A stretch of DNA of 64,000 nucleotides from an uncultured Eubacteriales bacterium (GTDB lineage Bacteria; Bacillota; Clostridia; Peptostreptococcales; Anaerovoracaceae): positions 50,344-114,343 of the forward strand of contig CADADV010000006.1 of the NCBI GenBank assembly GCA_902786815.1, given 5' to 3'. Position numbers and translations under genes: made by a program. The notes under the pieces are model-generated. The model saw only the letters and a program-made list of their open reading frames with translations. It made no database searches and was not told the origin of the DNA. Shown one piece after another: positions 27,266 to 28,871 of this stretch. Positions within the stretch are counted from its first letter, which is position 1. Every line of letters begins with the position of its first letter.

Positions 27266-27294
27266 TTGATATCGCTTCTTCTTCGTGTTATAAT
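27266..27294 (+). promoter_or_regulatory. Promoter driving riboswitch no. 3
   Basis: TTGATA (27266..27271), a 17-nt spacer, then TATAAT (27289..27294). Confidence 0.65.
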
Positions 27295-27309
27295 GCAGCC
27301 GGATACAAA

Positions 27310-27472
27310 ACTGACAGGTGCTGAAGCGACCGTTTCAGGTAATAGGGAAACAGGTGCAAATCCTGCGCGAACTCGTCACTGTAATCGGATGGTTCACCGC
27401 TACGATGTCACTGGGGAAACCCGGGAAGGCAGCGGAAGAACAATGATCCGTAAGTCAGGAAACCTGCCTGTC
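27310..27472 (+). promoter_or_regulatory. Cobalamin riboswitch no. 3 (classical long form)
   Basis: AATAGGGAAACAGGTGCAAATCCTGCGCGAACTCGTCACTGTAA ... GTCACTGGGGAAACCCGGGAAGGC ... the B12 box AAGTCAGGAAACCTGCCTGTC. P1 pairs GACAGG with CCTGTC. Confidence 0.87.
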
Positions 27473-27641
27473 TTTTAATCGGGGCATTCTTGCTTTTGCC
27501 CCGGGCCACGAGTCACTGGCGGAACAGAACACCTCTTTATTGAATGACTTGTTTAGAAGTTTCAAAAGGTCTTTGCTCCGTTACGCGAAGGCCTTTGTAT
27601 TCGAATCAAGTTATTTTTATTTATCTAAGGAGGTTTTTGTT

Positions 27642-28871
27642 ATGAAAAATCTTAGAAAATTCATTGCCATCGCGCTGTCACTGGTCATGGCGCTGGGCAT
27701 GATGATGCTGGTCACAGGCTGCGGCGGCTCCTCAGAAGAAGCTGCGGAACCGGAAGAACAGGCTGAAGAAACAGCTGCAGATCCGGTTGCGGAATGCGCG
27801 GCGCTGATCGAAGCGATCCAGGTCCAGGAGCGGACAGAGGATACAGACGCGCAGTGCGAAGCTGCAAAGGCTGCCTATGACGCGCTGACCGATGAGCAGA
27901 AGGAAGAGAACGAGGACGTATTTGATTACTTCGGGCGCGACACCGGCGATGCTTCCAAGGATGACCCGCTCAACGGCGATGAGATCGGCGAAAACGAGCT
28001 GTTGGTAGTATCCTTCGGTACTTCATTCAACGACAGCAGAGCAGCTGATATCGGCGGAATCGAAAAGGCTCTTCAGGAAGCTTATCCTGACTGGTCCGTC
28101 AGAAGAGCATTCACTGCTCAGATCATCATCAACCACGTACAGGCACGTGACGGCGAAAAGATCGACAACATGCAGCAGGCTCTTGACCGCGCTGTTGACA
28201 ACGGCGTCAAAAACCTGGTTGTACAGCCGACACACCTGATGCACGGTGCAGAATATGACGAGCTGAAGGGTGCTGTAGATGAGTATGCTGAAAAGTTCGA
28301 ATCCGTAGAGATCGCTGAGCCGCTCCTCGGTGAAGTCGGTGCAGATGCATCCGCCATCAACGAAGACAAAGCTGCTGCTGCTGAAGCTCTCGTTGCAGAA
28401 GCAGTCAAGGTTTCAGACTACGACACACTGGATGCTGCTAAGGAAGACGGCACTGCATTCGTATTCATGGGACACGGAACTTCCCACGAAGCGAACGTGA
28501 CCTATGACCAGATGCAGACACAGATGGGTGAGCTCGGATATGAGAACGTGTTCATCGGAACAGTTGAAGGCAACCCTCCTGACACAGCACTTCCGGAAGT
28601 CAAGAAAGCTGTAGAAGAAAAGGGTTACACCAAGATCATCCTCCGTCCGATGATGGTCGTTGCAGGTGACCACGCGAACAACGACATGGCCGGCGACTGG
28701 GGCGATGCTCTGGCAAACGGCGGTGAATTCGAAGTTGAAGGCGCTGACGCACCGGTTGACCTTGGCGAAGGATTTGGAAAAGACAACGTAACAAGCCAGA
28801 TCGAAGGCATGGGAAGAATTGCTGACATCCAGAAGATCTATGTTGAACACACTGGAGCAGTAATCAAATAA
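27642..28871 (+). CDS. Secreted lipoprotein with a CbiK-type (class II chelatase) domain
   Basis: The start is ATG 27642, preceded by AAGGAGG. The lipoprotein signal is MKNLRKFIAIALSLVMALGMMMLVTGCGG. An acidic linker is followed by the CbiK core: LLVVSFGTSFNDS, LVVQPTHLMHGAEYDE, FVFMGHGTSHE, and VVAGDHANNDMAGD. Confidence 0.85.
   Translation: MKNLRKFIAIALSLVMALGMMMLVTGCGGSSEEAAEPEEQAEETAADPVAECAALIEAIQVQERTEDTDAQCEAAKAAYDALTDEQKEENEDVFDYFGRDTGDASKDDPLNGDEIGENELLVVSFGTSFNDSRAADIGGIEKALQEAYPDWSVRRAFTAQIIINHVQARDGEKIDNMQQALDRAVDNGVKNLVVQPTHLMHGAEYDELKGAVDEYAEKFESVEIAEPLLGEVGADASAINEDKAAAAEALVAEAVKVSDYDTLDAAKEDGTAFVFMGHGTSHEANVTYDQMQTQMGELGYENVFIGTVEGNPPDTALPEVKKAVEEKGYTKIILRPMMVVAGDHANNDMAGDWGDALANGGEFEVEGADAPVDLGEGFGKDNVTSQIEGMGRIADIQKIYVEHTGAVIK

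Follow-up and report, generated by a model that had tools for sequence, protein, structure and literature searches.

The locus described here raises a simple question: why should a protein with the fold of the cobaltochelatase CbiK carry a lipoprotein signal and stand behind a cobalamin (vitamin B12) riboswitch of its own? The gene lies in a stretch of 64,000 nucleotides (nt) from an uncultured Eubacteriales bacterium of the family Anaerovoracaceae (GenBank assembly GCA_902786815.1, contig CADADV010000006.1, positions 50,344 to 114,343 of the forward strand). This whole stretch is referred to as the window, and coordinates are those of the window. A reading of the letters without database searches (the sequence-only reading) had suggested that the cbiK-like lipoprotein plays a B12-controlled part in corrinoid or tetrapyrrole capture, or in (de)metallation, outside the cytoplasm, rather than one in biosynthesis. 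What was observed directly, namely the riboswitch, the lipobox, two protein folds, residue conservation, synteny with NEAT-like and btuFCD genes and domain fusions among secreted homologues, supports that suggestion and extends it by a NEAT-fold partner, a link to the corrinoid importer BtuFCD and the breadth of the module. The module is most likely an undescribed Gram-positive B12-scavenging relay rather than a biosynthetic enzyme. No description of a cbiK-like/NEAT operon was found in the searchable literature, which leaves out most subscription journals.

The cbiK-like lipoprotein and its partner

The cbiK-like gene is followed by a single partner gene on the same strand. The elements of the locus are:

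27266..27294, plus strand: sigma-70-type promoter, TTGATA-17-TATAAT with an extended -10 TG, 11/12 consensus matches
27299..27485, plus strand: cobalamin riboswitch aptamer, Rfam RF00174, 109.9 bits against a gathering threshold of 31.5, E 1.2e-26
27523..27641, plus strand: expression platform in the minimum free energy (MFE) fold, a long helix pairing the Shine-Dalgarno sequence AAGGAGG (27627..27633) with CACCUCUUU
27642..28871, plus strand: cbiK-like lipoprotein gene, ATG 27642 to TAA 28871, 409 amino acids (aa), served by the Shine-Dalgarno sequence at 27627..27633
27642..27722, plus strand: lipoprotein signal peptide (residues 1-26) and lipidated Cys27 (TGC 27720..27722), predicted from sequence pattern
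27774..27926, plus strand: helical hairpin module, residues ~45-95, with an invariant Cys72; AlphaFold helices 48-60 and 68-80
27990..28868, plus strand: CbiK-type class II chelatase domain (Pfam PF06180), residues 117-409, with H278, E309 and H344
28997..29833, plus strand: partner gene, co-transcribed with the cbiK-like gene and encoding a 278-aa lipoprotein (LTG before C22) with two NEAT-fold domains
29856..29893, plus strand: intrinsic terminator, a 16-bp stem followed by TTGTTTTTGA

The terminator is strong and comes right after the partner gene, and the pair is therefore regarded as a two-gene operon. Two samples of relatives are used throughout. Locus counts refer to the 80 best-matching species-level loci out of at least 594 stretches in a one-genome-per-species collection that encode a relative of the cbiK-like lipoprotein; 77 of the 80 have upstream sequence. 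Counts of representatives refer to 150 listed distant homologues, taken at the level of 50%-identity clusters.

The promoter and the classical aptamer had already been read from the letters, as had the lipoprotein signal, the acidic linker and the complete class II fold, and each was recovered at the positions given here. Promoter-like sites are about as frequent here as chance would predict (3 observed against 2.8 expected from shuffled sequences), so the weight of this one rests on its placement, 5 nt 5' of the aptamer, at whose 5' edge transcription would start. The aptamer covers the full length of the Rfam model (positions 1-189 of 189) and is the top scorer among the four RF00174 matches in the window; a covariance model trained on upstream regions from 36 loci, termed R1, gives it 128.9 bits. 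The expression platform has an MFE of -67.4 kcal/mol, compared with -43.9 +/- 3.9 for shuffled sequences (z = -6.0). An intrinsic terminator was looked for between the aptamer and the cbiK-like gene, and none was found. We infer from the predicted fold that the leader would act by translational OFF control, through sequestration of the Shine-Dalgarno sequence.

The lipoprotein begins with MKNLRKFIAIALSLVMALGMMMLVTG followed by C27GG. It has a basic n-region (K2, R5, K6), an 18-residue hydrophobic core (residues 7-24) and the lipobox V-T-G-C27, and thus conforms to the pattern used here to recognize lipoproteins: a basic n-region, a hydrophobic core and a lipobox [LVI][ASTVI][GAS]C within the first 35 residues. 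In an alignment of 23 sequences, the conservation of Cys27 is at least 90%, and in 60 of the 80 loci the aligned residue is Cys. A longer open reading frame (ORF) from TTG 27540, which a first-start rule would choose, was dropped in favour of ATG 27642, which has both a Shine-Dalgarno sequence and a signal peptide.

Behind the lipobox comes an acidic linker, residues 28-45 (SSEEAAEPEEQAEETAAD), and then the helical hairpin, a module that accompanies the CbiK domain in 82 of the 150 representatives. Cys72, in the second helix of the hairpin (27855..27857), is kept in all 80 loci. It could serve as an axial cobalt ligand; the B12 transporter BtuM uses a Cys-cobalt bond. A disulfide between Cys52 and Cys72 was considered and ruled out, since most loci have Val or a gap in place of Cys52, in contrast to the invariant Cys72.

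The remainder of the protein is a complete CbiK domain. Residues 120-408 match positions 3-261 of the 262 in the PF06180 model (E 3.2e-63; 213.9 bits, cut-off 26.2). An AlphaFold model with a mean predicted local distance difference test score (pLDDT) of 73.7 was compared with known structures by Foldseek, and the matches included CbiK (1qgo; TM score 0.86, root-mean-square deviation 2.9 A), the periplasmic CbiK(P) of Desulfovibrio (2xvz; 0.85) and FetB of Porphyromonas (9b86; 0.81). Alignment to the metal ligands of CbiK, which the sequence-only reading had proposed as a check, found all of them: H278, E309 and H344 correspond to His145, Glu175 and His207 in Salmonella numbering. The catalytic role of these residues is established for the family. 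Together with H198 and H282 they are invariant in 80 of 80 loci, and a clade-specific H201 is kept in 77.

The partner gene starts 125 nt 3' of the cbiK-like gene, and its product has the N-terminus MKKSLFAILAVFIMAAFTLTG followed by CGS. The protein is named "iron transporter" at NCBI. Sequence searches were uninformative: a search of the PDB gave no useful match, and the match to the Pfam NEAT family PF05031 is sub-threshold (24.5 bits against a gathering threshold of 32.8, E 3.8e-5). The NEAT assignment therefore needed structure prediction. Many homologues of the partner do have a precomputed PF05031 match. The AlphaFold model, made with 25 sequences (pLDDT 84), consists of two β-sandwiches in tandem. 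Foldseek places the two-NEAT structures IsdH-N2N3 and IsdB at the top, and single NEAT domains match with TM scores of 0.6-0.67 at a probability of 1.0. As modelled, the partner has the eight-stranded β-sandwich that defines the NEAT fold.

NEAT domains are haem receptors, with YxxxY as their haem-ligand motif. The motif is absent here; domain 2 appears to read HxxxY in its place, a correspondence taken from strand position and not from superposition. Domain 1 has W142-Y143-D-H145, and the last strand of domain 2 opens with H265-E-I-E-Y269. Five residues (M50, F51, W142, Y143 and H145) are invariant in 78 of 78 partner proteins, and M261, H265 and Y269 in all 63 that have domain 2.

Conservation of the module and its link to btuFCD

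Relatives of the cbiK-like lipoprotein number in the thousands in metagenomes and, where named, are called "cobalt chelatase" or "sirohydrochlorin cobaltochelatase". When representatives of 50%-identity clusters were searched, 3009 matched, of which 452 were below 1e-30. Most full-length representatives open with a lipobox or a classical signal peptide. Many are multidomain proteins of 500-1600 aa, some with choline-binding cell-wall repeats or fn3 domains and some with two CbiK modules. CbiK-like and NEAT-like domains are naturally fused in 20 of the 150 listed representatives, in both domain orders. Examples of fused or giant proteins, which reach 1623 aa, are P0127, P0128, P0132, P0133, P0155, P0162, P0241, P0248 and P0260.

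The 80 loci come from Lachnospiraceae, Oscillospiraceae (Faecalibacterium, Gemmiger), Anaerovoracaceae and others. Cultured carriers include Eubacterium ramulus ATCC 29099, Gemmiger formicilis and isolates of Blautia and Butyrivibrio, and the Faecalibacterium carriers are loci L046, L067 and L075. A NEAT-like gene lies directly 3' of the cbiK-like gene in 78 of the 80. Downstream synteny was counted where 5.5 kb or more of sequence followed, which was so in 66 loci: the cbiK-like gene, the NEAT-like gene, btuF, btuC and btuD are on one strand in 54 of them, and the pair stands alone, as in the window, in 10, one of which (L034) was inspected.

The riboswitch is equally persistent. Of the 77 loci with upstream sequence, 74 have one according to R1, on the strand of the cbiK-like gene and 150-500 nt upstream of it, and Rfam confirmed it in all 11 loci outside the R1 training set (ten at 98-110 bits, L022 at 84.9). 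A hand-made regular expression for the B12 box, which caught about a quarter of the loci (about half when loosened), was superseded by R1 and the Rfam check. No riboswitch was detected before the cbiK-like gene in L039, L050 and L064, all of which have full upstream sequence. In L050, the NEAT-like and btu genes are missing as well, and a riboswitch lies ~3.5 kb downstream instead.

The genes of the importer, and those of B12 synthesis, are found elsewhere in the window:

30360..31526, minus strand: btuD, Pfam ABC_tran, best NCBIfam match "corrinoid ABC transporter ATPase"
31523..32617, minus strand: btuC, Pfam FecCD, best NCBIfam match BtuC
32644..33810, minus strand: gene for a BtuF-like lipoprotein, Pfam Peripla_BP_2
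45498..45685, minus strand: cobalamin riboswitch (RF00174) heading the cbi operon
20817..21590, minus strand: signal-less CbiK, presumed biosynthetic cobaltochelatase, Pfam E 3.5e-79

The three btu genes (30360..33810, minus strand) converge on the cbiK-like/NEAT operon. They are the last genes of a long cbi operon on the minus strand (cbiC, cobQ, cobD, cbiB, cbiA, cbiET, cbiD and others). Since this biosynthetic operon is present, the source organism is taken to be a B12 producer. No CbiMNQO system was identified beside the cbi genes of the window. BtuD has a C-terminal extension of ~130 aa; its residues 7-369 best match NCBIfam NF007082, and precomputed annotation puts Pfam MJ0874 on it. The BtuF-like protein is 387 aa long, more than is typical of BtuF, and a PDB sequence search with it gave no detectable relative.

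The separate cytoplasmic CbiK that the sequence-only reading had pointed out is there as well. It has no signal peptide, as its domain begins at residue 3, and it is 37% identical to the chelatase domain of the lipoprotein. This signal-less copy is presumably the biosynthetic chelatase of the genome, and the fact that biosynthesis is covered in this way counts in favour of a non-biosynthetic role for the lipoprotein. The lipoprotein shares its Pfam family, its fold and the His/Glu/His triad with biosynthetic CbiK, that is, with the window copy and the enzyme of Salmonella enterica (1qgo/2xwp). Biosynthetic CbiK, in contrast, is a cytoplasmic protein of ~260 aa that lacks the signal peptide, the hairpin and H201 and acts on sirohydrochlorin in the anaerobic pathway. 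Although the lipoprotein is labelled "sirohydrochlorin cobaltochelatase" in the database, it scores 148.8 bits against the biosynthetic equivalog NF047852, below the cut-off of 400, a result that discriminates only weakly since the cytoplasmic copy is also below it (240.7 bits). By score and by predicted location, the lipoprotein would thus fall outside the biosynthetic equivalog.

What the putative surface pair may do

Riboswitch control, linkage to BtuFCD, export signals, wall anchors and domain fusions together argue that the CbiK-like and NEAT-like proteins cooperate outside the membrane, repressed by B12 and tied to the transporter. Both folds, as modelled, belong to tetrapyrrole binders, which speaks for capture. 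We consider it moderately probable that this surface, non-biosynthetic CbiK paralogue and the two-NEAT lipoprotein make up a capture relay that serves the corrinoid importer BtuFCD as an accessory. Functional statements about the module, such as where the proteins sit, which ligand they bind, in which direction it is handed on and how the leader switches, are drawn from sequence, predicted structure and synteny.

The relay might work as follows. When intracellular cobamide is low, the riboswitch would leave the Shine-Dalgarno sequence free and both lipoproteins would be made. They would be lipid-anchored on the outer face of the membrane, with their acidic linkers extending into the wall. The tetrapyrrole cleft of the chelatase fold would take up a corrinoid (a cobamide, cobinamide or another incomplete corrinoid), with the invariant His278 and His344, or Cys72 of the hairpin, as possible axial ligands to the cobalt. 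The ligand would then be handed to the NEAT-fold domains and on to BtuF, and be imported by BtuCD. Once the cell is B12 replete, the riboswitch would turn the system off.

Several observations favour a corrinoid as the ligand. The riboswitch-controlled BtuFCD of Clostridioides difficile imports cobamides and cobinamide (bioRxiv 10.1101/772582). Faecalibacterium prausnitzii lacks much of the B12 pathway, and its strain A2-165 does not grow without cobalamin (PMC7360928); the presence of the module in Faecalibacterium thus argues against a role limited to cobalt supply for de novo synthesis. No iron-type regulation of the module was seen, which also counts for a corrinoid over cobalt or haem.

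The relay would be a Gram-positive functional counterpart of BtuG, BtuH and BtuJ of Bacteroides, assembled from a chelatase fold and a haem-receptor fold. These are likewise surface lipoproteins under B12 riboswitch control that pass cobamides to a transporter, the role proposed here (PMC13616437), although theirs is a TonB transporter of the outer membrane. Neither protein of the module has homology by Pfam or Foldseek to the BtuG β-propeller, the BtuH C-terminal domain or DUF4465 (BtuJ), and the resemblance would be one of functional analogy only. Extracellular cobamide capture in Firmicutes and other Gram-positives was called "entirely uncharacterized" in a 2026 review (PMC13616437), and the module offers a concrete candidate for how Gram-positive gut bacteria might compete for cobamides outside the membrane.

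Other points weigh against the capture relay. The support for it is entirely comparative. A pure binder would have little obvious need of a complete catalytic triad, yet the triad is kept in every one of the 80 loci. The characterized secreted relatives are haem binders or chelatases rather than corrinoid binders, and for FetB, insertion of Co and of Mn into porphyrin has been seen in vitro (PMC13065792). The BtuFCD of C. difficile appears to be functional without accessory proteins (bioRxiv 10.1101/772582). In the window itself, the pair forms an operon separate from btuFCD in an organism that makes its own B12, and the partner falls under the Pfam threshold for NEAT by sequence.

The full retention of the triad and the chelatase activity of FetB make an extracellular catalytic or cobalt-supply role the serious rival, although we regard it as clearly the less likely one. 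Under this explanation, the surface CbiK would be an active chelatase or dechelatase that inserts Co2+ into an exogenous or secreted tetrapyrrole, the Co-chelate then passing via the NEAT protein into a BtuFCD-type transporter. Variants include axial-ligand or metal exchange on scavenged corrinoids, or production of a metalloporphyrin for some other role, comparable to the manganese protoporphyrin IX (Mn-PPIX) of FetB. The invariance of H278, E309, H344, H198 and H282 counts in its favour; the conserved His residues might, however, just as well be axial ligands to corrinoid cobalt. We know of no extracellular tetrapyrrole substrate, and of no enzyme that takes cobalt out of a corrin, and both points count against catalysis. 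B12 riboswitches often govern cobalt uptake in producers (PMC545781), and the genome of the window belongs to a producer with no CbiMNQO identified beside its cbi genes. Cobalt supply would, however, be pointless in the Faecalibacterium carriers, since an incomplete pathway and dependence on B12 are reported for Faecalibacterium.

FetB (IhtB) of Porphyromonas gingivalis is the best PDB sequence match of the lipoprotein (9b86, E 6e-28). It is a CbiK-fold surface lipoprotein that retains the chelatase residues, and it is encoded with a TonB receptor and an ABC (ATP-binding cassette) transporter of the FecCD type. Unlike the module, FetB has no NEAT partner and sits in the outer membrane, where it belongs to haem and porphyrin metabolism; it acts in vitro as a chelatase for Co and Mn, Mn-PPIX production depends on it, and it is regulated by the availability of haem, not by a B12 riboswitch (PMC13065792).

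A bolder form of surface catalysis, in which the His/Glu/His site would metalate, demetalate or re-ligate a tetrapyrrole or corrinoid, is rather doubtful. It could serve to load Co2+ onto a carrier macrocycle for import via the NEAT protein and BtuFCD, a "cobaltophore" route, or to process corrinoid analogues ahead of their uptake, and the NEAT fold would then, for the first time, be a receptor for a cobalt-macrocycle instead of haem.

Acquisition of haem or iron in the manner of Isd or Iht, with a FecCD-type haem importer and an incidental link to B12, is improbable. NEAT domains in general are haem receptors, the top structural matches of the partner are all Isd proteins, CbiK(P) and FetB are described as haem-binding, and the NCBI name of the partner points the same way. 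The operon is nevertheless preceded by a cobalamin riboswitch and not by an iron regulator in 74 of 77 loci, btuFCD of the window ends a cbi biosynthesis operon, its permease and ATPase best match BtuC and a corrinoid ATPase, and domain 2 would have HxxxY where YxxxY is expected. The Isd relay (IsdH/IsdB/IsdC/IsdE-IsdF) resembles the module in placing surface NEAT-fold receptors ahead of a class III binding protein and a FecCD-type importer. It differs in being anchored by sortase rather than as lipoproteins, in its control by Fur rather than a cobalamin riboswitch, in the absence of a chelatase-fold partner and in its NEAT domains, those of the module being under the Pfam threshold and apparently having His for the first Tyr of the motif.

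That the protein is an ordinary cytoplasmic cobaltochelatase of biosynthesis, its N-terminal extension an artefact of annotation or start choice, is hardly credible: the database name, the complete CbiK domain with its catalytic residues and the cobalamin gene neighbourhood would fit, but ATG 27642 has a strong Shine-Dalgarno sequence, the 116-residue N-terminal region and the lipobox Cys are conserved, homologues include fusions with NEAT domains and with repeats that bind the cell wall, a separate signal-less CbiK is present and the equivalog score is low, although the cytoplasmic copy fails that cut-off too.

Secreted CbiK paralogues as such are already known, and the two that the sequence-only reading had named as kin, CbiK(P) and FetB/IhtB, are the closest solved relatives. 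CbiK(P) of Desulfovibrio vulgaris Hildenborough (2xvx/2xvy/2xvz) is a secreted paralogue beside a cytoplasmic CbiK and shares the fold and catalytic residues of the lipoprotein, with ~26% identity in a structural alignment. In work by Lobo (2008) and Romao (2011), its haem reportedly sits between subunits. In contrast to the lipoprotein, CbiK(P) is a soluble periplasmic protein of a Gram-negative bacterium, characterized as haem-binding, and lacks the lipoprotein form, the hairpin and the NEAT partner. It is encoded beside a btuCDF-type ABC transporter, with a B12 element upstream in Desulfovibrio (PMC545781). Rodionov et al. (2004) described one Desulfovibrio B12 element that governs both cbiK-cbiL and btuCDF (PMC545781), so the pairing of riboswitch, cbiK and btuFCD has a precedent, which was then read as biosynthesis.

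With its predicted export signal, a separate cytoplasmic chelatase in the genome and an association with FecCD/BtuC-type importers, the cbiK-like lipoprotein fits this extracytoplasmic subgroup. New are the Gram-positive lipoprotein form with a hairpin, the obligate NEAT-fold partner and a link between riboswitch and btuFCD that is both widespread and consistent in gut Clostridia. If the capture relay is real, two classic tetrapyrrole folds, those of chelatases and NEAT haem receptors, would have been redeployed for corrinoids, and the debated haem role of the secreted CbiK paralogues of Desulfovibrio and Porphyromonas would be worth revisiting with corrinoids. As the two proteins are annotated as "sirohydrochlorin cobaltochelatase" and "iron transporter", counts of cbiK as a marker would overestimate B12 biosynthesis in metagenomic surveys of gut Firmicutes.

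Other cobalamin-associated loci in the window

Two further features belong to other clusters in the window:

19665..20795, minus strand: membrane-anchored bi-NEAT paralogue directly 3' of the signal-less CbiK, with hydrophobic segments at the N- and C-terminus
60926..61132, minus strand: fourth cobalamin riboswitch, 56.5 bits, heading a long operon (46595..61132)

The product of 19665..20795 is 33% identical over its full length to that of 28997..29833 and has a weak NEAT match. The order CbiK-then-NEAT is found twice in the window, the second time at 19665..24094 (minus strand), and also at L001:9409-11177 and L002:10528-12842. The cluster lies 3' of a riboswitch match at 23979..24094 (minus strand) and consists of a tetrapyrrole methylase, an exporter-type ABC-2 ATPase and permease, the signal-less CbiK and the bi-NEAT paralogue. 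Here a NEAT protein outside the cytoplasm, together with an ABC-2 transporter, accompanies a cytoplasmic chelatase, a puzzling combination. The riboswitch match is short (116 nt; 38.4 bits against the threshold of 31.5, thus just above it) and could represent either part of an aptamer or a compact form. Immediately 5' of the cbiK-like/NEAT operon, at 24401..27067 (minus strand), is a divergently oriented gene for an 888-aa protein of the clostripain family (Peptidase_C11) with a Lys/Glu-rich N-terminus and a membrane segment; no link of this gene to the B12 genes is evident.

The operon behind the fourth riboswitch encodes, in order, a MoxR AAA_3 ATPase, a DUF58-like protein, a 730-aa protein with a transglutaminase core, a 365-aa ORF with a faint match to eukaryotic cobalamin-binding proteins (E 0.027) and a DUF4430 protein. 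Next come a 1204-aa surface protein with fn3, cadherin-like and β-propeller domains and an energy-coupling factor (ECF) transporter made up of a T component, a double ATPase and an S component. This operon looks like a second, unrelated candidate system for B12 capture and uptake.

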